NCBI GenBank assembly: GCA_043381765.1
Contig: JBHJMP010001012.1
Span: forward strand, 1 to 35,708
Source of the DNA: Collodictyon triciliatum
Lineage: Eukaryota
DNA length: 35,708 nucleotides
Reading direction: 5' to 3'
Every line of letters starts with the position of its first letter. Positions within the stretch are counted from its first letter, which is position 1. Under the pieces are notes generated by a model that was given only the letters and a program-made list of their open reading frames with translations, had not been told where the DNA came from and ran no database searches. The translations under genes were made by a program, and so were the position numbers. Positions 1-34,241 of the stretch are shown piece by piece.

Positions 1-67
1 ACTCGACTCATTCGTCTCCGGTTTCCTCAGACAGCGTCACAACCACTTTCCGTCCCCCTCCGCCGCC

Positions 68-3000
68 ATGGCTGATCGCGCCGCCCGTCTCGAAGAGCTG
101 CGAGAAATCGTCGGTGACAGCAGCATCGCGGAGCTCGAAAAACGCACAGCGCTGAAACTCAATAACAAAAAACTGACTTCTGTGCCGCCCGGTGTCTGGG
201 ATCTGCCAGGCTTGGTGAAGTTGTGGCTCGGTGTAAATCAGCTTTCGTCGCTGCCGCCGGCAATATCGCGGTTGACGGGACTCGAGTACCTTAATGTTGG
301 TAACAATCAGTTTTCGTTGCTGCCGCCGGAAATATCGCAGTTGACTGGAATCGAGAGACTTTGGGTTGCTGAGAATCAGCTTTCGTCGCTGCCGCCGGAA
401 ATATCGCGGTTGACGGGACTCGAGTCTCTTGATGTTTTTGTCAATCAGCTTTCGTCGCTGCCACCGGAAATATCGCAGTTGACAGGACTCACGGAGCTTT
501 ATGTTCACAACAACCAGCTTTCGTCGCTGCCACCGGAAATATGGCGGTTGACGGGACTCACGTACCTTGATGTTCACAACAACCCTGTAAGTGTTTTGTT
601 GTTTTTGTTTTATTAAAGAAAAGTGACTAACGATGTGCGCAGATCGAGGAGCTTCCACCACAAATCACGGCACTCACGAATCTGAAGTATCTCTACATCG
701 AGTCTGGAGGCGAAATAAGCATCAAACGTGCACCGCGTGGAATCACGAACCTGCCGTGCTGGAACGAAGGCGCAGATTACAAGCATATCCGAAAGCTGCA
801 GCTATATAGGGGGGGACCGGTAAGGCAGCAAACTGGTATTCAAAAAATGTAATCCTTATAAACAAATATTCCCACGCTTAAAAAATAAATAAATATATTA
901 TCAGAACGAACACGAGATTCTGACACCAGGATGGACTCCGAGCCAGCACCAGATCAATACGTGGACTGCGCTAGACTTCAGCGGAATGAAGCTGTCTGTG
1001 ATACCCGAGTCCATTTCGCGTCTCACCAACCTCCGCGAGCTCAGCGTATTCGACAACCCTGTAAGCACACACGTTTGATTGCTTGCCTATTTCTGTTACT
1101 CACTTCTTGTCTATCCACAGAAGTAGCATTAAAAAAATAGTAGAGGAAAAGGAGAGTATGCCGAACATATTTTCATTTACGGTAGTGTCTTTATTTATTT
1201 CTCCTTCTCACATCAAACTAAAATACCGCAGATAAACGAGATTCCGCCATGGATTGAAAACCTCGCCGATTGCCTTGTTACGCTGCACATCGAAGACCCC
1301 AAAGCACTGTTCTTTTCTGGCCGCACCATCAGCAGGGCACCCAAGAGGCTGAAAACCATGAAGTGCTGGAAGCGCGAGTGGGAGAAGAAACTTCATCTCT
1401 ATCAAACAGTAAGTCAAGCAAAAAGCCCATTATTTTCTGATTTTGCCACTGACACTAATTGGTTCGTAAGGTGGAAGAGGCGCGTAAAGAAGAAGAGGCA
1501 CGCAAAGCTGAAGAGGCTCGCAAAGCGGAAGAAGCACGTAAGGCGGAAGAAGCTCGCAAGGCGGAAGAAGCTCGTAAGGCGGAAGAAGCTCGTAAAGCGG
1601 AAGAAGCTCGTAAAGCGGAAGAAGCTCGTAAAGCGGAAGAAGCACGCAAGGCGGAAGAAGCACGTAAAGCGGAAGAGACACGTAAAGCGGAAGAGACACG
1701 TAAAGCTGAAGAGACACGTAAAGCTGAAGAAGCTCGCAAGGCGGAAGAAGCACGTAAAGCGGAAGAGACACGCAAAGCTGAAGAGGAAGCCAAGAAAAAA
1801 AGCTTGCTACTCATCGACCCGAATAGCCCAATCGCAAGGTACCAGCTTCCAGAAGCCGCCACAATAGGAACCAAGATACTTGGAAAGGGAGGCCAAGGAG
1901 AAGTGTTTGAGGGACAGTACCTCCGCAACCCAGTAGCCGTCAAGAAAATCGACACCACCAAGAAGAACGATGCCATCCAGGAGGTTCTGCTCACCAAGAA
2001 GGTCACACACAAGAATATAATTGATATCATCGGAGTGTTTATCAACCCCGACAATTGCTTCTGCATCGTCATGCCGCTGGCCTCTGATTCCCTAAAAGGG
2101 TACATCGAAAGGAACGGCCGAATCACCCCAAAACAGACACTGACTTTCGCCCAGCAAATCTGCGACGCCTTAGCCTTCTGTATATCCGCCACACCCAAGG
2201 AGCCGCTCCACCACTGCGACTTGAAGACAGAGAACATCCTCATCGTCGACGGCGTCGTCAAGGTGGCTGACTTCGGATTAGCCATCACGCGAACAAAGAC
2301 CGGCATGTCCTCAGTTCCTAATGCCACCAAGTTTGTTCCCGAAGACCAGGCAACAGGCGGGACGGAGCGCTGGCAAGGCCCCGAAATCTTTGACGAAGTC
2401 TGCAAGAGTGAGCACCGAGTTACCGAGGGAACAGAAAATGTCGGATTCCGCGGTGAACGCAGTGATGTCTACGCATTTGGCCTGATTGTGTGGTCGATGG
2501 CGATGGGAGAATACCCTTTTGCTAGAATATTCCCAGGCGATATCTCCCACCGTATCATCAAGGGCCAACGACCAGACATTTCTGTGGATATTCCCCCCGC
2601 CATCCGACACCTGATTCGTACGTGCTGGGGCCAGAACTACAAGAACCGACCCAAGTTCTCGAAGATTAAGGAATACATCACCCTTGTGACCGAGAATTCT
2701 CAGACCACAATCGCTGATATAGAAACCCATCTGCCGCTTACATACCCGCCCATCAAGGAGATGTACTACGGGGAGTTGTACGAGTACCTGACCGATAAAG
2801 GTATCTCGAAGGAAGAAGCTTGGAAGCTGACGCAGAGGCGAGTAAACGGAGACACGATTCTGAACAAGTCGGCTGAAGATTTGGCGCAAGACTATGAGGT
2901 CGCCAGTCTCATCGCTCAGCTAATCGTCACTTTGGTAAGAGGCGGGGCACAAGTGAGCTTCCCTTCATCTATAACCTCGCCTCGAAGTGCTCCCGGACCT

Positions 3001-3237
3001 GCCGTGGGTGCAAAGGGCAAGCCAGTCAAGGATATGAACACTGCCGAGCTGGTCGCGTACCTGGAAGAGAAGAAAGTCTTGCGCAAATTTATTGAAACAG
3101 TCCGGACACAATCCAAGATACCGGGAAAAACGTTCGTAGTCCTCGATGTGGATGATTTGACAAGTCACCCCTACGAGCTGAGGGATGACCAAGCTGAAAT
3201 CATCCTCAAGCTCATCGACGAGGCCAAACGTATATAA
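68..3237 (+). CDS. LRR - (AEEARK)n helical linker - TKL-type non-RD protein kinase - 2x SAM-like domains; 5 exons, about 931 aa
   Basis: Exons 68-586, 643-819, 905-1060, 1232-1408 and 1471-3237 join in frame through four phase-0 GT-AG introns (donors GTAAGT/GTAAGG/GTAAGC/GTAAGT; GACTAAC branch site in intron 1). 23-aa LRRs (LxxLxVxxNQLSSLPPEISxLTG). Kinase motifs GKGGQGEV, VAVKK, HCDLKTEN, DFG, WQGPE, SDVYAFG, RP. Two C-terminal 65-70 aa repeats with a SAM-like pattern. Confidence 0.92.
236..580 (+). repeat. Five tandem 69-nt LRR-coding units
   Basis: Units start at 236, 305, 374, 443 and 512 with a near-identical core, aatcagctttcgtcgctgccgccggaaatatcgcggttgacgggactc. Confidence 0.95.
1471..1776 (+). 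repeat. 17 x 18-nt coding minisatellite encoding (AEEARK/AEETRK)
   Basis: gcggaagaagctcgtaaa-type units read directly; 306 nt = 17 units, starting at the first base of exon 5. Confidence 0.95.
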
Positions 3238-3854
3238 ATCCTTCTTTTTTTTTTCTCCATCCGGGTTTTTTCAGCACTTTGCTTTTTCCCGGCCATAAAA
3301 ATGAATCCACTTTCGCCCTGCTCCCACCCAAGACAAGTCAGAATAAAGAAATTTTAAAAAAAAAATACGAAGAGATGATGGCTGCAAATTGTGATGCAAT
3401 GTTTTGAGAGTTTAGTCGGCCTTGAAAGTTGAATGTGTCTGCATCACGCCCTCTGCAAGTGAAGAACTGAAAAGAAAAAAAAAGCCATGATTCTGCGTAT
3501 TTTTTTCCCGCTGCCGTGCAAATTGCAGTTTTTCATCGCAAAATATGTGTTCAAGTAAGACAATAAACATGTTTTTCTTTATTCAGTGAGTGTACAGTGA
3601 GCATTTATCTGCGATGCGAGCTAAACATTTCCTTCATTACAGTAGTATGGTGCAGTCCAAGCAGCAGTCTTCATATACATTTTTCATTTATAACTTACTT
3701 TTCAAAAGAATAAAAATTATCTTTCAAAAATTTTATTTATGAAAAACTTTTTTTTTATTCTTCCTTTCAACTTTTGTGCAGGACCGAGGGTTATTTATGA
3801 AAAACATGATAAGTTTGGAAAACAAACCGGACAATATACATTTTTTTTCAATTT

Positions 3855-6800
3855 TCAAGTAATCGTGCCTTTTCGCCGTTTTGCTGCCTTACTTATGACA
3901 AAAGTTTGTTCCGAACGAATGAAAGGTAACGCGATGATGTTTTAACATCATATTAACATAACCATTCATTTAATTGTGGCTGAATCTCTCCTCCTATGTG
4001 TTCACCATGAGCCGGTCTTTCTTGCGATATGTTGTTCGAACTGAGTGAGGCGCAAAAAATGGAAAAGCTGATTCATCTCTGCATCAAAATATTCTGCGGA
4101 TTAATTCCAATTATGTATTCTAATTTTGGCAAATATTTTATTAATTATATAAATAAATCATTTATTGAGAAAATAACATTTATATGATATAATTAATGTA
4201 TTATACATATTATATTCAATAAATTACAGTATTAAGATTGGAAAATGTAAGATGCCTTGTGCCCTCACCTATGAATACTATTCCTATCATGGGCTCTAAT
4301 GTAAACTCACCTCTTTCGATTTTCAAAAATGGAATATAAATAATTTAAACTATTTTAACATATATTAAAATGATTTTATCATTATACTTTGCTTCAGATT
4401 TACCTAGATGTATTCCTATACAATATTTAATGACTATTACAGCCGTAAGTACATAATTACGAGTTAGACACAATTTTGACACCAAAATATGAGAAACTCT
4501 AAACCAATTGTTTCCTTATCCGCTTTCTTTTGGGACAAATTAGTCAATTTTCTTTGAATAAAAATATATGGTATATTCAAGCGCTAGTCGAAAGGGGCAA
4601 AGATAATAAAATACAAAATGAAAATCAAACCCCATGTAAAGAAAAGCCAAATGAACATATAGGAAGCACCCACACATCTCAATTCAAACCTAAGCCATCA
4701 ATGAGAAGGAAATGTCTCATGTCTGGAGAGGTTGACTTGAGCAAAATGTTTTTTTTTTCCAAAAAAAATAAAAATCAAATGTAGAAGCGAGGTTTGGAAA
4801 TGCGCTTCATTCATTTTTTTCAATTGAAATAGTTATCAAAAAAATAACCCATCAGAACGCTCCTTCAATTAGTCAATTCCTCGAGATACAGTTAATAGAC
4901 TTGATAGCAAATAATATGCAATATAATACAAAGAAAGCGCATATTTTTTTGAAGCGGACTTAATAAAAGATGAGTTTTCTAAAATGTTAAGATAATTGCG
5001 AACCACAGCTAGGTGTGCATCAATTAAAAAAATTTGAAAGACTATTCAAATAAAATTTTATGTATGAGATAAGAAACACAGAGGATTTCTAAATATATTC
5101 GAAAAAGGGCTCTTTATTATAAAAAAAAATTGATTACTACACACTATCACTAATTTTTTTCTTCCAAAACATAAACCAACCAACATGTATACAATGAACG
5201 AAATCATGTACAGTGCTTTTATGCCCGTTACATTGTGAATTACCGAGAGAAAGTACTAGCATATAAATAAATAAAAGACGGGATTTTAGTGTCATAGTAA
5301 GAAAATACAGAAATAATAAGGTTTTTGGTAAGTGCAGTAAATAGAACTTAAATCATACAATCTTAATTCTGTGGATTCGAAACGTCAATAATAGCAAGCA
5401 ATTTCATTTTTAATAAACTCAAACGTGAAATTTATGGACTCTCTTAAATTCTGCGTAATACAACACTAAAATGACTGATCAGCGCTTTATAGAAACATGT
5501 CATCCAATCAAACAATAGTCAAATAAGACATTCAAATCTAGGAATTATCCAACAATAAAACAATATTTCATTTTTCTCTTATCAATCTGACAAGCACATG
5601 TGATTAAAATAAGAACAATTGTCATATTTTACTTTTTATACAGATGAAAAAAAAAGAAGAGTATAAACCAGACTGAAAGGTTTGTAAACGGAGATTTGTC
5701 CAAATGTCAGTTCGAAATATGTATCCAATTTTCACCTAAGGAAAAAAATCAAGATGTCTAGATTACTGTCAATATAACTAAGCGGGATGAATGCCATTTT
5801 TTTTGAATCTTCAATAAAAATAAAACAAAGACTCAATAATTGAAAAACACATTCTTTTGCTAAAAACAATGAAAAATTTACCAAAAAATCTTGTTAATTA
5901 TATGAGTAGCAACCAATTTGAATCCCTATAGGTATGTATCTCATTTTATATAATACTTTCGTTTTGAGTTTTCATTTTCAATCTCGAAATCATAAAATTA
6001 CTTCCTAATAAAGTGTTCAGGTGAAATACTCTCGATGAAAACGCTGCTTATTTTTGTAAGCTTTAGTAATACTCTAAATACCATTTTTTTCAATCAAAAT
6101 CCATTTTATGTTTATTTTTTTTATTGTGATATGCTCAATTTTGATTTTAATAAATAGAATCTTTTATTATGTGTTGAAACAGACTTGAAAAAATGGAGTT
6201 GATGGATTGTGGCAATTCAGTTGCACCGTTCATTTAATATTATTATATATTAGCTGATTTTGTTCTGTAATTTGTAAGCAGCTTATTTCGGTATTCACTT
6301 AATTTTTACTTCTCTTAAATTTATCTCTCCTTTTAGTAAAACAAATAAAGGATAAAAAAATCCCTCCTTGTAGTAGAGTCTGTCACTTTAACGGAAGTCA
6401 TGGTATTTGATGTGATTTTTTCAATTTTCTTGATTTTTTGGACCAGCAAGTCGAATGAAACTAATTTTATGAACATGATACTTTATTCACTCAGTGATCA
6501 CCAGACAAAAAAAAGTTTATATGTTTTTTTTTAAAATTCAGTATAGGAAGAAGATTTTTTAAAAATACTTTGTTAACAAATGAATAATTTTCACAATATT
6601 TGGTGTAATTTCAAAAAAATGTGAGAATATAATTCAAATTGGAGCGGAATGCAAAGTATACTACTGTAAAATCTCTTCAAATTACCTGTTAGGCTCTTGC
6701 ATTTTTCCCTTTATTCGCTTCAAGAATAAGGCTGTTAGCCTCTTGCATTTATTATTTGAATTCAATCAGCTCAATAAAAACTTCTTTAAACGAAATAAAA

Positions 6801-9800
6801 AAATTTTAAAAAACCGTCACACTGAAAATATAGCATATATTTATTGAACACGTGTTAGGCAATAAATAGCAATACCGAAACAAAAGCACCTCAAAAGAAG
6901 CAGGCATCTAGGCAAAGGCAGATTCATCATAGAATAAGTAAATCTGTAACCACATACCTCATAAAAAGGATTCTTTATCTCAAAAGGGATAATCCATCCT
7001 AAAGGCACCAAAAAATTACGTAAAAATGATAATGTCAATTCAGAGGCTAATACAACATATAGCAAGGTATAGAGAAATTAAAAAACAAATAATTATCACA
7101 TAACCATCCTTCATTGTTTACTAGAGCTCAATTCAATTATTATCCACTAAACATTAAGAATGAGGTTGAAAAATAGAAAGTGATAGTTATTAAATATTAA
7201 AATTTTCAAATAATCATTAAATGCTTTTTATTCAGTAAGGCCATTTCATGAAACAATGAAATCCCATTTATCTACATTTTTTGAATTTTCCAAAAAATGA
7301 CACACTGGACTAATGAATTATTTATCCAGATTTTTATGAAAGAGAGCAAAAAATTACTGTATGCTATATTGAGTCATTTTGTCATCAAGATAGATAAACT
7401 TCAAAATATTCGATAATACCTCACTATTCACACAGTTTTCCCCTTAATTCGTTTCAATGTCCTCAATATTCATACAATTATTATGTAACACATCATAAAA
7501 CGCGCAATCTAAGTGATATAAAATATATAAAATAGTTTTTATCAAGGGGAGTGGCATGTTCCTTATCCTAATATCGATTTCTATAAAGTTTACCTTTTAA
7601 AATAGAAATAGTTGATGCTTACAAAAATTTTGAAGAAAACGTTTTGTGCAAATGGGCAGACAACTCTTAATTGCTTCGAATTCATGATATTTTCATTTAT
7701 TTATTCAAATGCTCAAAATTGATTTTTTTTATTAGCATGGTCGGTATTGTGACTATCTTGTGATAATAGGATTCTAGAAACACACATACATGTAATTTTT
7801 TTTTGTTAAATTCAGTTAAATTAACACTTGATTTCAAGTTCCATTAAAAAACGTAGTTTCGTCAAACCAATATGAGTGGTATTTAAACGCAAAAATACTG
7901 TTATAAATTGTAGGTGTTTATGAAACTACATAATGTTTTAATTTTTCTAAAACCTACAAAAAGTAAAATTTTACATTTTTTTCACTTTATTCATCTCAGA
8001 ATATTTTGTATTTACCGACGGATAAATTATTGATTTATACATAGCGGAAACAAAGCAATTTCATTTAGTGAAGTTCATATTTATTGCTATCAGGGATAGT
8101 GACGCCATCTTATGACTTTTAAATATGATTCATGAATCTTTATCCTAATATTGACTTTTGTGAAATCAAATTAAATGCATATGTATACGTAAAAAAAGGA
8201 TTCATGACATTTAACCCTTTATATATTGAAAACATATAATATTTCATCTTCATTATTATGACACTGGTCTTTTATTTTATAGAAAAGTGCGATAGATGAT
8301 TTTTTCATATGACTGAGAATTTTTATAAAATTTTCCCCTTTAAACATAGTTTACTCTGCTTTATAGGTAAATAGGAGCAATTATGTGAGATAGGAATTAA
8401 AATGGATGTTATAGCGATTTTAGGTATAAATGGCTTTGGTGAAAAAAAATGTATTTAAATCGTTTCATCACACAGGCTTTCACCTTGAATCTTTTTTCCT
8501 CTTCAATTTTTGCACACCAAAAAGAAAGTTTAAACAACTAATATCTACCTTTTTATGTTAAATCTACATTCGTTGCATAATTTTGTCAGATATATTTTAA
8601 TCAGATATAAATCATTCTTAAATTACATTTATTGAAAAATTTCAGAAATCATTATCCATGTTCATGCAATCAGGAAAAAAAATGACATATTAAAATAATC
8701 AATATCATCTACTGAAAAAAATAAAGTGTTAGTAATAAACATGCTTTTATCACCATTAATAATAAACTACATCCAAATATCTTTAAATTATTTCGCCCTT
8801 ATTTACTTTCACTTCATTATCAAATAATATTTATATATTAAACAGATTGAAACACAGCTCAAATGCGTCTCTCCCATATATAATTATAAACTCGCGATAA
8901 AACTCACTGGAAGATATAATCTTTTTATTTCGTACCTTCCCATAATTTTTGAATACGATATATCCGAAAAATAAAGTGATATCAATCCATATTTCCATTT
9001 ATCTATGTATTTTAATGTATGAAATATGTTACATTGATTTTTCCTCATGCTAGTACTATTATTCTGTTCAAGAAAATTGACAATTGGCGCATAAGAATAC
9101 CTTTCAATCGTCCATTAAATCTGTAACTCGTTCTGAATTTTGCTCTGAACCTCGCTTCCATAAATAAATAATGAAAATACTGGGCTATAATGTCCTTCCC
9201 CTCCTATCATCTTTAATTAAACGATTGGGCTACAACAACTGTATGATAAATCCAATTTTCAATGCAAAAAGTGGTCTAGTGAATTGAAGATGATAATATT
9301 TATTGATATACTATGCGTAATATATAATTCATAATTATTAAAACATAAGACACTTGTAAATTACCATATATGTCACCAGACAAGTATTCTTATTTTCGCG
9401 GCTAATATTATGCACTGCATAGCTCACTCACCTTTCCTACTAACTATTCATACCTCGTTATATAAGCAGTTATAAAAATATGAAATCCATTCATCACGAT
9501 ACCATGTATCTAACATCCAATCACCCTGTTCTTGAAACGAATAAAGGAAGAAAAAAACAACCGATTACCCTGCAATATCTTTCATTTTTCTCCATGCAAT
9601 TCTGTGTATGTCCTAACCACCGACACAAACAAAAACAACTCCGCTATCGCTTTCCTATCAGCCCTCCTCATCGCACAGAACAAGCTTCGTTGCAAATTCA
9701 ACGCGCTCCCTTTCAGCCTTCTTCGCTGTCCATATAGACACGAGTCTTTGTCCTTATAATAGCAACGACATGTATTCGCCATTGCATATTAATGCGCATG

Positions 9801-12166: not shown

Positions 12167-14999
12167 CATTATCATTATCATTATCATTATCATTATCATT
12201 ATCATTATCATTATCATTATCAATATCATTCTCATCATCTCAATCATCAAAATCGATATCACTAATATTTCATTCATCGTTAATGTTCATAAATACTATT
12301 AATCCAAAATATCATCTATTATAATGTTTATGCACCGTGATATGCTTATTCTCTGCTTGTGAGCAAAGATTTGACATTTAGCAGGCCAAATTTTTTGCAT
12401 CATAAAATAAAAATCAAACTCTGATGATTATAAAGTCATCTAAAATCTCCTCTTGGCACTGTAGGCAGCTGAGACTGGAAGCGGCAAAACTGGCGTATGC
12501 ATTTATCATTTGTGTGGCTCTAATGAATATATAAGTCTATATTTCCGAATCACAGTTGATTTACATACTAGGTCATACACATTGTTTAGTTAACAGCCAC
12601 ATTTTCTTATCACCTCCAACCCCTTTATTCGTCCTTTTGCTCAATTTCAATTTCTTACATATTTCTGGATTATATCTGCATTCGATGGGGAATAAATTAG
12701 GCATTTTGTCTCCCCATTTTGCAAATATGTCATGAAGAGCTCCGGACAAAGAGAAGCACATCAACGGCATCTCCCAAGTGTAAATATCAGCTCAATATAT
12801 GTGTCATTATCATCAAACTAAAAATAGCAAAAAACATGTTTGTGATACTTCTCTTTGGAAACGAAAAGTAGCCTCTGCTTTTACCGTTCATCTGAGCATT
12901 GAAGACAGAGACTCTCTTTTTGCTGTTTCCTCTGATGGCCTTGTGGGCCAAGCACGCTGCACAAACTGGCANNNNNNNNNNNNNNNNNNNNNNNNNNNNN
13001 NNNNNNNNNNNNNNNNNNNNNNNNNNNNNNNNNNNNNNNNNNNNNNNNNNNNNNNNNNNNNNNNNNNNNNNNNNNNNNNNNNNNNNNNNNNNNNNNNNNN
13101 NNNNNNNNNNNNNNNNNNNNNNNNNNNNNNNNNNNNNNNNNNNNNNNNNNNNNNNNNNNNNNNNNNNNNNNNNNNNNNNNNNNNNNNNNNNNNNNNNNNN
13201 NNNNNNNNNNNNNNNNNNNNNNNNNNNNNNNNNNNNNNNNNNNNNNNNNNNNNNNNNNNNNNNNNNNNNNNNNNNNNNNNNNNNNNNNNNNNNNNNNNNN
13301 NNNNNNNNNNNNNNNNNNNNNNNNNNNNNNNNNNNNNNNNNNNNNNNNNNNNNNNNNNNNNNNNNNNNNNNNNNNNNNNNNNNNNNNNNNNNNNNNNNNN
13401 NNAACTTATGGCCAGCCCTTCAAAATGGGTGACACGATTGGATGCTGCATCGATTTGGATGATTTCCAAGTTTCTTACACAAAAAATGGTCTGTAATATA
13501 TGATATTGATGATTCTATTCTTAAACAAAAAAAAAAAAAAAAAGAAGAAGAATAAGAGTGCTTCGCTACCTTTAAGCTTTATTCATACTTGTTTCTTTTC
13601 ATTTTTCATCACCAAACTGAAAATCAGGCAAAGACCTTGGTATTGCATTCGATATCCCCAGAGAACTCCAAGGAAGCGCTTTTTACCCAGCTGTATATTT
13701 ACAGGTTTTTTTTTTTACTTTTATTTTACGAATTTCATTTATTAAAGAAAAAAATAATTAAGGCCTCATCAATCTTTGCATATGGTTCTTTACTGATGGA
13801 TATTCAGATATTTGACACAATCCATCACATACTTGTTTCCTTTACATACACACATATTGGTATGTGTATAATATAGAATGCTGAAATTACGATGAACTTT
13901 GGAGCTGCTCCAATGTCGTTCCCTTTAGTTGATTTTCCTGATTATTTGCCCATACAGAAGGTTATTTTTAGCCGGAGAGATTTTTTTTATCCAATATTTT
14001 CCATGACTCACTCAATCATGAGCAAGGACAAACCCAAGAAGCAGTTATTGGAAAAGAAAATGAATCAAATCAGGAATCGCATATAAAATTTTATTTGGTA
14101 ACACAGGCCAATGCCCGCCATGTTTCATTTGCTGATAGCGATGCTTCGACTTCAGAGTCTGGGTTTGTTGCTTCCAAGACAGCTGTATCTTTGATTTAAA
14201 TTTTTTTTATTAGTATCACCGACATGTGCTCGCTTGATTGCAAGGAAAATTGTTGATTATCTCTCTTCCCTAAAGTCGTCTCCCACTTGCCATAATTATC
14301 GAGCCGACCCTCGAAATGTCGAACCAAGTATTTGACGAGGTTGTATATTTATATCAATTTTATCTATGCGAGTAATAACATATCTTTTATATTTAAATCC
14401 CCTCAAAGTCAAAATGCCATTTGGCACAATAACTGACGATATCATAACAATAGCTGACAAAATTGGCAGCGTTTGTCACAGACCCCCCAATTCGTATTTT
14501 GTCTACAAACAAGGCGGATGGTCTCAAAGAAGTCACTCAGGTGTTTAGTCTGTTTTGAGCTAGTGACTTCATCCAGTGATAAAAAAAAAAATAGAAAATA
14601 CAAAGCTTAGAGCAATTTTAGTATGACATTTAAGGTATATTTCTTGTCTCCAGGCTATCCGCCAGGGAGTTGACATAGTCATCGGGACGCCAGGTCGTCT
14701 GGAAGGTAAGATAACGGGCGTACATTTGGTGGAATTGTGCACCGAGTTCTCACTTTGAGCCAAATATGCATATAAAAAAGACAACCCCGTCTTATTTTGG
14801 ATTTATATGGCAGGATTGATTGGGTCTAATGCACTCCCTGTGTCAAATATCCGATTTTTGGCACTCGACGAGGCTGATAGGCTATTGGACCCTGGCACAC
14901 AACCCGTGATACTGGGAATCCACAGCGCACTTCCAAAGCAGCGAGGAGGACATCGCCTCCAAGTAAATATCGATAAAATATAGTAATCATAATCTTCAA

Positions 15000-17554: not shown

Positions 17555-23787
<6,233 letters not shown>

Positions 23788-24826
23788 CAGCCGGTGTGTC
23801 AGATGTCTTTTTCCTGTGGTTTCTGCTCAAAAAAAGAAAGGAAAAGAAAAAGGAGTGGATTGAAAGGAAAAGACAGGTCAGGAGTTTACAGTGCCTGTTC
23901 GGTTGTTGTGATTGTTATTATAGTTCATAAAATATATACATTAATTTCAGATCGACACAGCGCCTTGTTTTATGGGCTTCTTTTTTCCAATGTTTTGATT
24001 TTTGATTTTTGATTTTTGGTTTTTGGTTTTTGATTTTTGGTTTGGTTTTTTGATTTTTGTTTGGTCTTTCACAGTGAATACACGATGGCCGCTGATTAAT
24101 ATTTACAATGCCCAGATGCGAAGCTGTGAGATGGATATTAAAAGGCTACCAATGGGACTAAACATAATCCGTCCATCAACCATGCCTTTGTTCGGGTGTG
24201 AATTAGTACCAAACTCTCACACCTCACCACAGCAACCAAAGGCCAGCCTTTCCAACATTCCGAACAGAAAAAAAAAAAAGAAAAGAAAAGCCTGTCATGA
24301 GCTCGTCGGCTTATGGCATTCGCCGACCAACATCGTGGTACGCCGCTTCCACTGCGGCAAACACTAGCAAAAAAAAAAAAAAGTTTCAAGAGCATGAGGA
24401 CTCTGAATCACAAAATGAACACCAAAACATCTTGAACAGTTTTCTGTTTTCTTCTTTTTTTTTTTTTTCCTTTTTGTGTTATACATCTTTTCTTTCTACT
24501 AATATTTCTTTAAAAAGAAAGAACCAAACGCAATCATTTTGTATTGTAAGCAACCATCATTGAGCTATGCGATAATCTATACTCATCGAAATGAGTCATG
24601 TGATAGCTGTGAGACTTGGAGAAGGGTATTTTTACGTTTCCCCAACATTCTACTCGCCCAGAACGCGGACACTCAATTCGTGCTGTCTCCAACAGCATAT
24701 TAAAAAAAATGGCTTATAACTCATGTCTTATTATGCCTTTCAGAATCCCATGTATGACTAGAGTTACTGAGTCTTCATAGAAATATTATCATTTGAACTA
24801 TTCTGACTTTCTGTTTCAAACTGAGT

Positions 24827-27318
24827 TTATCCGCATAACAGTAAAGCTCCAGGGGTATGGTTGACTACAAAAAGGTCTCCTGTGATGCCAAAAGTGAGAC
24901 CAAGTGGTTTGTCGACTAGCAATTCGTGGTATTTGTTTCCTTTCTGGTCGTAAAAGTGGACTTTGTTGTTGGTGTAATCGCCGAGCAGAAATCCACCACG
25001 AGGTCCGCGGCAAATGGAATTGTAACTTGTTTGTATGACAACGACTGTTTTGACAAGGTCGCCCATGTCTGAAAACACAAACACCTCGTTGCCCGCCTCG
25101 GTTGTCACCATAATGTGATTTTCGTCATTAACTGCCAGGCTAAACGGCTTATTCACCCTCGTTGTTGGTTTATCTGCCCAAACACAGCAAGGAGACCCGT
25201 CCGGTAGGAACTTTTTGACTTTGTTGTTTTTACTGTCACTAACATAAAAATTACCGCTCATGTCGTGAGTGGTATTAACCGGTCCCTGAAAATCACTTTC
25301 TATGCTGCCAGAATTGCTCACCGTCATGATGTAATCAAGGCTTGAGTTATACATCTGGACGCGATTTATATCGTACTCGACTGTAACAATATTACCTGTA
25401 GCCGGGCAAACAGATACTCCCGACAAGTTACTGAAATTTTTCAGAGGACTTTTTTTTCCGTCGATGATACCTATGAGATTGAGGCTTGGGGAAACGATCT
25501 GTACGCGGTGGTTGGATTGATCTGCCACGTACAGATGGCCGGTTTTTGGGCTGATAGAAATCCCATGCGGGTTTGAGAACGATAATGGAGACGACACTGT
25601 TTTCGTGGAAGAAATGATGGTTGCTGGGAGCGGGTCTTTTTCGATGATTGGGAAAAAACCACATTGAATCGAGTTCAACAGAATAGAGTCTTTCATTGAT
25701 GATGAATACTGCATGGTTTTCAGATAAAACAAGGGCATGGCGGTGGGGATTTGCTTGGTCCCAGAATTGTCTAGCACAGACTTCGTTCTCCTCAAGACTG
25801 CGTAATTCAGCGCTGCCTGTGAAATCCTCAGCGGCTGGATTTGAAAAGAAATCTGGTTTGCAATGGATTCATTTTTCCGAACAGCCAAGTAGTTCTGCTC
25901 CATGATGACAAGTTGTTTTGCGGATTTACCTCTCAAAACTCGAGTCTATTTGGTATGTAATGAGATGAAAGAAAATCAAACGAAACTTGGTAATCGTATG
26001 CTCCACTCGAAAGAAACATTACTTATGTTCTTTCAAAATGAATGATAATTTGTAAATTGTAACTTTTTGCACTTTACAAATTATATAAAAATAAACGAAT
26101 AGAATTTTTTTTTCGCTCACTCGTTCAATCAAAGCTTCTTCCACAGAAACCACTTCATCCTGTATTGCATTCAATTTTTGCTTGATAATATCATCAGTCT
26201 TCTCGGCTTCATCACAAAGCTATCAAAGATAAAAAAAAAAGTATTTACTCAACGGCTGAAAAGTCTCACAAGGCCGAGGTTCAGAAGAAAAGGAGTTTTG
26301 GCGGTACGATACTAAAATCACATGTTTCTCAAGCCACCAAGGAAAGGGAAAGTATATCTACTTTATTTACATTTCAATAGATTACCCATTTGTGTTAATT
26401 AGAAGGAGAGGGAATAATTAAATATAAAGCGTGATAGAAGTTTAAATAAAGTAACTCCTAAGTCGGCTAACTGCGACTCAGGTAGTTTTGTTTTAAAAAA
26501 ATGAAGCTCCACCGGAAGAGCAGCAAGTCATTTATACATACATACATACATACATACATACATACATACATACATACATACATACATACATACATACATA
26601 CATACATACATACATACATACATACATACATACATACATACATACATACATNNNNNNNNNNNNNNNNNNNNNNNNNNNNNNNNNNNNNNNNNNNNNNNNN
26701 NNNNNNNNNNNNNNNNNNNNNNNNNNNNNNNNNNNNNNNNNNNNNNNNNNNNNNNNNNNNNNNNNNNNNNNNNNNNNNNNNNNNNNNNNNNNNNNNNNNN
26801 NNNNNNNNNNNNNNNNNNNNNNNNNNNNNNNNNNNNNNNNNNNNNNNNNNNNNNNNNNNNNNNNNNNNNNNNNNNNNNNNNNNNNNNNNNNNNNNNNNNN
26901 NNNNNNNNNNNNNNNNNNNNNNNNNNNNNNNNNNNNNNNNNNNNNNNNNNNNNNNNNNNNNNNNNNATACATACATACATACATACATACATACATACAT
27001 ACATACATACATACATACATACATACATACATACATACATACATACATACATACATACATACATACATACATAAAGAAATAAAATTAATTAAAAGAAAAG
27101 AAAGAAAAGAAAATAAAGAAATAAAAAAAGAAAAGAGAAGAAAGAATAAATAAATAAATAAATAAATTAAAAGAAAAGAAAGGAAAAGAGAAGAAAAGAG
27201 AAGAGAAGAAAAGAAAAGAGATTTGATAACTGCAAAGTACCTGATCGAGGCACCCCTCGAGCATTCGCGTCATTGAAAGGGTCTTTTCCTTCGCTTCCTC
27301 GGCTGCAATCGAGCACAT
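24827..27318 (-). CDS. Coiled-coil + NHL-repeat (beta-propeller) protein, TRIM-NHL-like C-terminus; 5' end uncertain (may extend to 27559 or beyond)
   Basis: Exons 27318-27241, 26219-26121 and 25945-24827 join at phase 0 (MCSIAAEEAKEK...LDQ|LCDEAEKTDD...LIER|TRVLRGK...). NHL motifs FSNPHGISI...LYVADQSNHRVQI, FQGP...FYVSDSKNNKVKKF, GDYTNNKVHFY. Confidence 0.85.
26534..27073. repeat. (TACA)n microsatellite spanning assembly gap 26652-26966, intronic in the NHL gene
   Basis: Same repeat on both sides of the N run. Confidence 0.95.
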
Positions 27319-33795: not shown

Positions 33796-34241
33796 NNNNN
33801 NNNNNNNNNNNNNNNNNNNNNNNNNNNNNNNNNNNNNNNNNNNNNNNNNNNNNNNNNNNNNNNNNNNNNNNNNNNNNNNNNNNNNNNNNNNNNNNNNNNN
33901 NNNNNNNNNNNNNNNNNNNNNNNNNNNNNNNNNNNNNNNNNNNNNNNNNNNNNNNNNNNNNNNNNNNNNNNNNNNNNNNNNNNNNNNNNNNNNNNNNNNN
34001 NNNNNNNNNNNNNNNNNNNNNNNNNNNNNNNNNNNNNNNNNNNNNNNNNNNNNNNNNNNNNNNNNNNNNNNNNNNNNNNNNNNNNNNNNNNNNNNNNNNN
34101 NNNNNNNNNNNNNNNNNNNNNNNNNNNNNNNNNNNNNNNNNNNNNNNNNNNNNNNNNNNNNNNNNNNNNNNNNNNNNNNNNNNNNNNNNNNNNNNNNNNN
34201 NNNNNNNNNNNNNNNNNNNNNNNNNNNNNNNNNNNNNNNNN
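33796..34241. other. Assembly gap (N run), probably covering the start of the last gene
   Basis: N run. Confidence 1.

Follow-up and report, generated by a model that had tools for sequence, protein, structure and literature searches.

A putative soluble LRR-kinase protein with two predicted SAM folds from a seemingly lineage-restricted protist family

The contig JBHJMP010001012.1 of the Collodictyon triciliatum assembly GCA_043381765.1, analyzed over 35,708 nucleotides (nt; hereafter the window), carries a gene of five exons at positions 68-3237 of the forward strand. The deduced protein of 931 amino acids (aa) consists of leucine-rich repeats (LRRs), a charged spacer, a protein kinase domain and two C-terminal domains with a predicted sterile alpha motif (SAM) fold. 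An earlier note, written from the letters of the sequence, had presented it as a candidate intracellular pattern-recognition receptor and pointed to the cysteine that replaces the arginine of the HRD motif (non-RD kinase). Our analysis makes it probable that an intact, expressed-looking gene encodes a soluble multidomain Ser/Thr kinase of a lineage-restricted family, which would resemble mitogen-activated protein kinase kinase kinases (MAP3Ks) in its mode of action, bind a partner through its LRRs and assemble by means of its SAM domains.

Results

Gene structure and sequence support

All five exons are in phase 0 and bordered by GT..AG introns, and the spliced frame ends in a single terminal stop codon (TAA at 3235-3237). 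The 931-aa product assumed in the earlier note was thus recovered, and its domain order (LRRs, spacer, kinase, SAM) was confirmed by Pfam, tandem repeats, motifs and fold models (Table 1). The GC content is 52% in the coding sequence, 26-37% in the introns and 36% in the whole window. As the introns are similar in GC content to the surrounding genome, the gene appears to be native and eukaryotic. The reading frame is open upstream as far as window position 2, and translation may start beyond the window edge. However, the 25 aa that precede the first LRR form a leader similar in length to those of full-length relatives.

Contigs of the public runs X1, X2, X6 and X15 were aligned to window positions 1-3400 (16 runs had shares of 0.05-0.15). 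Exact DNA contigs of X1, a freshwater metagenome, were found at 2078-2224, 2470-2620, 2692-2932 and 2959-3118. Exact metatranscriptome contigs cover 1743-2013 (X2) as well as 2040-2160 and 2131-2304 (X6). The H-C-D codons are spanned with 0 differences by the X1 contig 2078-2224 (DNA) and by the X6 contig 2131-2304 (RNA library). Because these exact contigs come from independent DNA and RNA libraries, the Cys codon is real and not an assembly error. The gene occurs in RNA libraries, to which DNA carry-over may contribute. Moreover, nine contigs (six from X15, three from X6) fuse an exon-1-like LRR end (..AACCC.) straight to position 642/643. This junction is the predicted intron 1 acceptor, visible in related transcripts. 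Relatives align with 0-1 gaps across junction 1, and at junction 3 their alignment is likewise free or almost free of gaps.

Comparison of exon 5 with the X15 contigs revealed 25 third-position and 23 synonymous changes among the best-supported 33 of 66 differences. This pattern of purifying selection is one of the findings that the earlier note had named as speaking against an immune receptor.

A kinase domain with HCD instead of HRD

The kinase domain was identified as PK_Tyr_Ser-Thr (PF07714) with an E-value of 4.8e-36, and all motifs (GKGGQG, VAVK, HCDLKTEN, DFG and GPE) are present. The codons CAC CAC TGC GAC at 2209-2220 result in a catalytic loop reading HHCDLKTEN. Together with the independent contigs they substantiate the HCD motif described before at codons 2212-2220. 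Judged from its motifs, the kinase is catalytically complete, the residue ahead of the catalytic Asp being Cys rather than Arg.

Among the best 60 matches in the PDB, the nearest sequences were CSK, DLK, ABL, CTR1, TAK1 and ZAK, with ZAK structures at E 1e-18. The best 60 matches obtained with a family profile were headed by CTR1, MLK1 and MLK4, followed by SYK, Lyn, TAK1 and ZAK (E 8e-37). MLK1, MLK4 and ZAK are therefore among the top profile matches, as are tyrosine kinases and CTR1. No kinase of the receptor-like kinase (RLK)/Pelle or IRAK type was present among the best 60 of either search. In the structural comparison CTR1 was the best match (target TM-score, TMt, 0.80), alongside SYK, TNNI3K, TGF-beta receptor, RIPK2 and CRAF. 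The predicted local distance difference test (pLDDT) values of the kinase model are mostly at least 84 over the lobes and below 50 at model residues 155-207, which comprise the activation segment and a family insert. The corresponding low-confidence region at window positions 2350-2460 contains a long activation segment and the insert, with a conserved ENVGHRGE.SDVY after the APE-type helix. No leucine zipper follows the kinase; the first SAM fold (SAM1) is directly attached.

No Roc (PF08477), Ras-family or COR match, nor one to any further domain, was obtained in any of the five exon translations (Pfam, E<=1), in line with the statement that the protein is not of the Roco/LRRK type. A plain Kyte-Doolittle scan, run without a dedicated predictor, displayed neither a signal peptide nor a membrane segment, again as claimed before. 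The maximum 19-aa hydropathy mean (1.68 at aa 526) lies within the kinase fold and is the only value above 1.6; the mean hydropathy of the N-terminal 30 aa is -0.46.

Two LRR blocks with family-specific caps

The proposed LRRs were clearly detected by Pfam, and they form two blocks, each with its own cap. Exon 1 matches LRR_4 (E 7.4e-23) and LRR_8 (E 6.6e-19), while the matches in exons 2 and 3 are weak, with LRR_4 and LRR_8 in exon 3. Exon 1 encodes seven LRR units of 23 aa starting at aa 26, 49, 72, 95, 118, 141 and 164, the last of which enters exon 2. A 69-nt tandem repeat at 236-582 (5.0 copies, 81% matches) corresponds to the 23-residue units starting at aa 49, 72, 95, 118, 141 and 164. 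Both blocks end in a family-specific cap with the motif AP..I..(L/M).CW, at aa 203 and aa 320. Exons 2 and 4, each of 59 codons, are homologous (32% identity, E 1e-7), and introns 1 and 3 interrupt the repeat at the same position (after the LRR 'NP') and in the same phase. Homology of the exons and the matching intron sites point to a duplication of the LRR-plus-cap module as a unit. The cap region is also found in the relatives P0270, P0271 and P0123, in which 22-26 of 58-59 residues are identical to exon 2.

The nearest solved LRRs are those of Leptospira LIC proteins, LRRD1 and SHOC2 (E 1e-75 to 1e-51; SHOC2 about 2e-51), and plant receptor kinases, LRRC8 and RSU1 rank behind them. By sequence, the LRRs are of the 23-residue SHOC2/LRRD1/RSU1 type, a class common in cytosolic scaffolds.

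The six tandem units vary most strongly on the concave face. Of the 75 codon pairs compared at the x residues of LxxLxLxxN (five per unit), 63 differ (62 non-synonymous, 1 synonymous), compared with 127 of 270 at the other 18 positions (72 non-synonymous, 55 synonymous); pairwise comparisons of this kind are not independent of each other. The repeat backbone is young or homogenized, and the concave face is individualized in each unit, which argues for a real and specific binding surface.

A charged spacer between LRRs and kinase

An 18-nt unit, present in 17.8 copies at 1465-1784 with 87% matches, encodes the (A)EEARK repeats of the spacer. Its length of about 106-110 aa is close to the 102 aa given earlier. 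The 115 residues from aa 344 (344-458) comprise E38, A30, K20 and R17 with only 9 others, and they show no hydrophobic heptad. ER/K single alpha-helices are long helices rich in Glu, Arg and Lys that have no hydrophobic seam. Since the composition of the spacer is of this kind, it probably forms an ER/K-type single alpha-helix and not a coiled coil. The spacer is missing from four full-length relatives from Diphylleia rotans (53-64 gap positions), suggesting a recent addition in the lineage of the window protein.

Two C-terminal domains with predicted SAM folds

The final 183 aa were modeled with AlphaFold2 on an 11-row family alignment. The model has a mean pLDDT of 82 and contains two five-helix bundles joined by a linker, which varies in length among relatives. 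The stretch leading into SAM1 (Y..P...M..GEL) carries family-invariant residues. In a Foldseek comparison with the PDB, all of the matches listed were SAM domains or tandem-SAM proteins. Single SAM domains, namely 2dkz, SAMD1, polyhomeotic (Ph), Scm, PHC3 and L3MBTL3, were aligned over 57-73 columns with a TMt of 0.70-0.87, a root mean square deviation (rmsd) of 1.4-2.5 Å and a probability of about 1.0. The tandem-SAM proteins SARM1, liprin and caskin were matched at an rmsd of 11-17 Å. On the basis of model and fold comparison we accept a SAM fold for both C-terminal domains. The 'two SAM-like repeats' of the earlier note are thus true of the fold and not of the sequence, as no repeat was detectable between SAM1 and SAM2 and neither gave a Pfam SAM match.

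Further searches with the tail provided little. The ESM Atlas matches listed for it include SAM-named clusters at 0.79-0.86, all under 0.9, which serve as a lead only. When only the C-terminal 184 aa were used as query, 588 candidate homologues were obtained, none with E<=0.1. A complex prediction with two copies of the tail scored 0.02, which is evidence neither way.

A small family with variable catalytic loops

A word-indexed search of 5.8 billion proteins returned only two close matches (46% and 41% identity), followed by generic kinases. When kinase and tail were compared with 1.84 billion representatives using HMMER, nine proteins had a match extending past the kinase, and one metagenome fragment was found in addition. 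All nine are transcripts of Diphylleia rotans (CRuMs; EukProt EP00002) and fall into nine 50%-identity clusters, so that the gene is not single-copy in this group. These searches point to a small family restricted to one lineage; so far its members have come only from freshwater protists of the Diphylleia type. Judged from the distribution of the family alone, the source organism is probably a diphyllatean, and the neighboring ORF with NHL repeats carried no taxonomic signal. The longest D. rotans isoforms (P0270, 852 aa; P0271, 823; P0276, 827; P0123, 810) share the plan LRR block-cap-LRR block-cap-kinase-SAM1-variable linker-SAM2, without the charged repeat. The number of LRRs varies within the family. 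From X15, 391 contigs that are 90-99% alike were obtained. They suggest that close copies are numerous in this run, although much of the contig count stems from the internal repeats of LRRs and spacer.

The metagenome fragment P0221 (217 aa, on a contig of 966 nt) is 42% identical to the second SAM fold (SAM2) in its C-terminus, including the KSVKDMNTAELVAYLE start. Its kinase is of a different type, with EHRDLKPEN and without the ENVGHRGE insert of the family. The SAM2 module hence appears, from these sequences, to have been shuffled between kinase families in this lineage. A scan of metagenome contigs with the family alignment, which does not inform on paralogues, gave 330 pattern matches, of which two loci passed (L001 and L002; 24-28% identity). 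The nearest non-family kinases, as judged from 9 scanned of 150 listed, are proteins with several kinase domains, some with Ras/Roc, guanylate cyclase or receptor domains. None of these 9 contained LRR or SAM matches, and a wider LRR-kinase-SAM clade was accordingly not found. The literature searched describes neither an LRR-kinase-SAM architecture of the tyrosine kinase-like (TKL) group nor this Diphylleia family; such an architecture could be listed in the supplementary tables of three kinome papers (PMC3019232, PMC10463195, PMC1420674), which lay outside that search.

The catalytic loop differs considerably between members. It reads HHCD in the window protein and in P0002/P0276, HHRD in P0121/P0270, P0123 and P0124/P0271, LHRD in P0165/P0275, CYRD in P0001, EHRD in the fragment P0221, YHED in P0133/P0274 and HHRE in P0127/P0273, where GGF replaces DFG. 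This amounts to two HCD, six RD-type (including P0221), one HED and one HRE loop; P0192, which lacks the loop, was left unscored and outside the tree. With six RD-type relatives and one other HCD relative, a non-RD loop is no defining character of this family. LRRs accompany HRD (P0270, P0271, P0123 and P0275) as well as HCD (P0276). HCD therefore does not co-segregate with LRRs, the test that the earlier note had suggested.

When nine family rows were analyzed by maximum likelihood together with three outgroups, the tree recovered the family (86/94) but not its inner order. The second HCD protein does not appear as sister of the window protein; it is paired, with weak support (80/87), with an HRD protein. 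In P0127/P0273 of D. rotans, HHREVDAHN and GGF stand for HRDLK..N and DFG while both SAM folds are kept, and the transcripts seen carry no LRR part; from these substitutions it is likely a pseudokinase.

Table 1. Features of the LRR-kinase-SAM gene in the window (nt positions; + denotes the forward strand).
Feature	Position	Strand	Details
Exon 1	68..586	+	ATG at 68, GT at 587; 25-aa leader and first LRR block
Intron 1	587..642	+	56 nt, GT..AG, GC 32%
Exon 2	643..819	+	59 aa; last part of LRR block 1, with cap 1 (APRGITNLPCW at nt 730-762)
Intron 2	820..904	+	85 nt, GT..AG, GC 26%; basis: frame, splice signals and homology alone
Exon 3	905..1060	+	52 aa; linker plus beginning of LRR block 2, core of an LRR at aa 275
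Intron 3	1061..1231	+	171 nt, GT..AG, GC 36%
Exon 4	1232..1408	+	59 aa; final LRR of block 2 and cap 2, APKRLKTMKCW at nt 1337-1369
Intron 4	1409..1470	+	62 nt, GT..AG, GC 37%
Exon 5	1471..3237	+	spacer, kinase and both predicted SAM folds
Charged helical spacer (predicted)	1471..1800	+	(A)EEARK hexapeptide repeats
Protein kinase domain, TKL/TK-like	1873..2676	+	Pfam PF07714, exon-5 aa 135-402
Kinase motifs		+	G-loop 1882-1899, Lys 1942-1944, H-C-D 2212-2220, DFG 2269-2277
SAM-fold domain 1 (predicted)	2749..2940	+	five helices; AlphaFold2 model residues 22-85, block pLDDT 92-95
Linker between SAM folds	2950..3009	+	Ser/Pro/Gly-rich, disordered; pLDDT <50, model residues 89-108
SAM-fold domain 2 (predicted)	3025..3231	+	five helices, the last one long; AlphaFold2 model residues 114-182, block pLDDT 87-93

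Surroundings of the gene

Directly downstream of the gene, which has a GC content of about 50%, the window at 3300-9700 displays 26-29% GC per kb and no open reading frame (ORF) of at least 110 aa. Runs of N are located at 12972-13402 (431 nt), 26652-26966 (315 nt) and 33796-34241 (446 nt), the second of them flanked by a microsatellite of the 4-nt type that translates to TYIH/MYVC repeats. A low-complexity stretch at about 11.9-12.3 kb translates to runs of I, IM and HY. Such N runs and low-complexity stretches suggest a draft scaffold. On the reverse strand, 22177-22518 is an exon of a PPP-type (calcineurin-like) protein phosphatase (Metallophos, E 1.4e-12), and the adjoining ORF at 21611-22003, without a Pfam match, probably continues the catalytic core as read from its sequence. 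A further ORF on this strand (24830-25945, 372 aa) contains NHL repeats (E 4e-17) and has only 6 distant relatives (21-26% identity). The GC content at third codon positions (GC3) of the LRR-kinase gene (68-3234) is 0.59, versus 0.41-0.50 in four ORFs at 17558-25945. The high value could be due to the codon bias of an expressed family or to repeat content.

Discussion

Proposed function

The features of the protein can be combined into a working model of a kinase controlled by assembly. The concave face of the LRRs would bind a protein partner or ligand, and the rigid charged helix may hold sensor and kinase a set length apart. Through self-association or docking onto other SAM proteins, the SAM domains would gather kinase domains, which could then switch on in trans. 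By analogy with the SAM-bearing TKL kinases ZAK and PfTKL3, the protein might act as a MAP3K-like upstream kinase. A non-RD kinase is probably independent of the contact between activation-loop phosphate and Arg, and the missing RD arginine is in keeping with an enzyme that is regulated through assembly and not through another kinase acting on it.

Several results weigh against this reading. Neither the tail nor either of its halves gave a Pfam SAM match (SAM_1, SAM_2), even at E<=10, and the best such match in any relative was SAM_2 at E 0.25 (P0192). Foldseek E-values were 0.03-0.2, with 0 of 500 at <=0.001. Such weak E-values are usual for domains of 65 residues; because of them, the SAM assignment rests on fold rank and TM-score. 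With a predicted TM-score (pTM) of 0.44, the relative placement of the two SAM folds is undefined in the model, and self-association, one of the two ways in which they could gather kinases, belongs among the doubtful points as well. The kinase is TKL/TK-like and seems to fall outside the named TKL subfamilies, which makes 'MAP3K-like' an analogy. Finally, introns 2-4 are placed by frame, splice signals and alignment to relatives without read support. For introns 3 and 4 this is due to window positions 1141-1482, which are not covered in X1, X2, X6 or X15, and for intron 2 to a contig joint (765 to 888) that is ambiguous.

Comparison with known systems

ZAK kinases bear a leucine zipper and a SAM domain, according to PMC3019232. 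ZAK/MLTK (MAP3K20), of the MLK type, resembles the window protein in combining a TKL kinase, a helical element and a SAM domain. It has one SAM domain, a zipper after the kinase and no LRRs, whereas the window protein has its helix before the kinase and two predicted SAM folds. The loop of ZAK is of the RD type. PfTKL3 of Plasmodium falciparum depends on its SAM domain for kinase activity, as reported in PMC2933843. It is a protist TKL kinase and thus a precedent for SAM-controlled TKL activity, but its SAM domain is single and N-terminal, and it contains MORN motifs rather than LRRs. Beyond the kinase fold we take PfTKL3 to be unrelated in sequence to the window protein.

Roco/LRRK proteins are soluble and combine N-terminal 23-residue LRRs with a TKL-like kinase, as described for the Dictyostelium kinome (PMC1420674). 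In contrast to these, the window protein is without Roc and COR, and cap and charged repeat fill the space between LRRs and kinase. Lineage-specific fusions of LRRs with TKL kinases have arisen independently several times in protists, including oomycetes and diatoms, and according to the portions available of PMC3019232 and PMC10463195 these are mostly transmembrane proteins with extracellular LRRs, for which those portions report no SAM domain. Like SARM1, liprin and caskin, the window protein has two SAM folds in a row. In those proteins the SAM domains pack directly together, whereas the two folds predicted here are held apart by about 20-30 aa of disordered linker.

Alternative explanations

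The protein could be a SHOC2/RSU1-like scaffold with an attached kinase. Its LRRs would then serve a growth-related or cytoskeletal housekeeping function by keeping a small GTPase or a phosphatase in place, and its SAM folds would bind another SAM protein instead of polymerizing with themselves. We regard this as possible though not likely. SHOC2 (E about 2e-51) and RSU1 are among the top solved LRR relatives; this similarity, however, is generic to the 23-residue class. The recurrence of SAM2 on another kinase type in P0221 would be expected of a shared docking module, and differences to the close homologue are mostly synonymous, but the neighboring genes are unrelated.

An intracellular pattern-recognition receptor, whose LRRs detect a microbial, viral or prey molecule, whose SAM domains cluster and whose non-RD kinase starts a defence response, seems quite unlikely. 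The idea draws on plants: as stated in PMC3411088 and PMC8463890, Cys/Gly non-RD kinases mark all characterized plant receptor kinases for microbial signatures, a claim that in PMC3411088 concerns RLK/Pelle kinases. FLS2, EFR and XA21 combine LRRs with a kinase in which Cys replaces the catalytic-loop Arg (PMC3411088). These plant receptors carry their LRRs outside the cell, have a signal peptide and a membrane helix, and their kinase is of the RLK/Pelle type, whereas the window protein is predicted to be soluble and has another LRR class and another kinase clade, the latter judged by the ranking of PDB matches and not by a formal kinome tree. Neither RLK/Pelle nor IRAK kinases occur among the best 60 of these matches, and the nearest LRRs are those of the cytosolic scaffolds SHOC2, LRRD1 and RSU1. 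The link from the non-RD loop to pattern recognition, on which the earlier note had built, thus finds no support, as HCD, RD, HED and HRE loops occur in the same family: only two scorable proteins carry HCD and six are of the RD type, LRRs are found with both, and the two HCD proteins are not sisters in the (weakly resolved) tree. A multi-copy family with variable LRR numbers and many related X15 contigs would suit a receptor, as would the concentration of LRR-unit variation on the concave face, but variability of this face is general to LRRs. Tandem SAM domains also occur in SARM1. Among the observations named in the earlier note as contradicting an immune role, RD-type relatives and purifying selection were found, whereas the gene is not single-copy and its tail does model as SAM.

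In its most far-reaching form, the idea would be that cytosolic LRR-kinase-tandem-SAM receptors arose independently in diphyllateans and expanded into a family, with diversified concave LRR faces sensing microbial, viral or prey molecules, SAM-driven assembly, HCD/HED members as non-RD kinases and others as pseudokinase decoys. Such a new class of intracellular immune receptors, convergent with plant non-RD kinases and SARM1-type assemblies, is to be viewed as very doubtful.

A non-functional or mis-assembled locus, with repeat spacer and Cys codon as artefact or decay, is extremely improbable and already largely refuted: the spacer is a young tandem repeat missing from relatives, three N gaps lie elsewhere in the window and GC3 (0.59) exceeds that of neighboring ORFs (0.41-0.50), but the frame is intact over five exons with all catalytic motifs, exact contigs from DNA and RNA-library runs that are independent of each other span the HCD codons and parts of the spacer, and differences are biased to third positions.

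Significance

Fusions of LRRs and kinases have appeared repeatedly, in plants, oomycetes, diatoms and Roco proteins, and the control of some TKL kinases by SAM domains is known. The gene adds a further independent combination. It joins LRRs of a soluble protein, which end in a cap motif of their own, to an ER/K-like spacer, a TKL kinase and a pair of SAM folds that have diverged beyond the reach of Pfam. An immune role, at present a conjecture, would, if true, extend LRR-based innate sensing to another supergroup. CRuMs form a deep branch next to Amorphea, and the family provides a data point on domain shuffling in signalling architectures from this very poorly studied deep eukaryotic lineage. 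As its RD, non-RD and putative pseudokinase members share one scaffold, it may also offer a natural test of the role of the catalytic-loop arginine.

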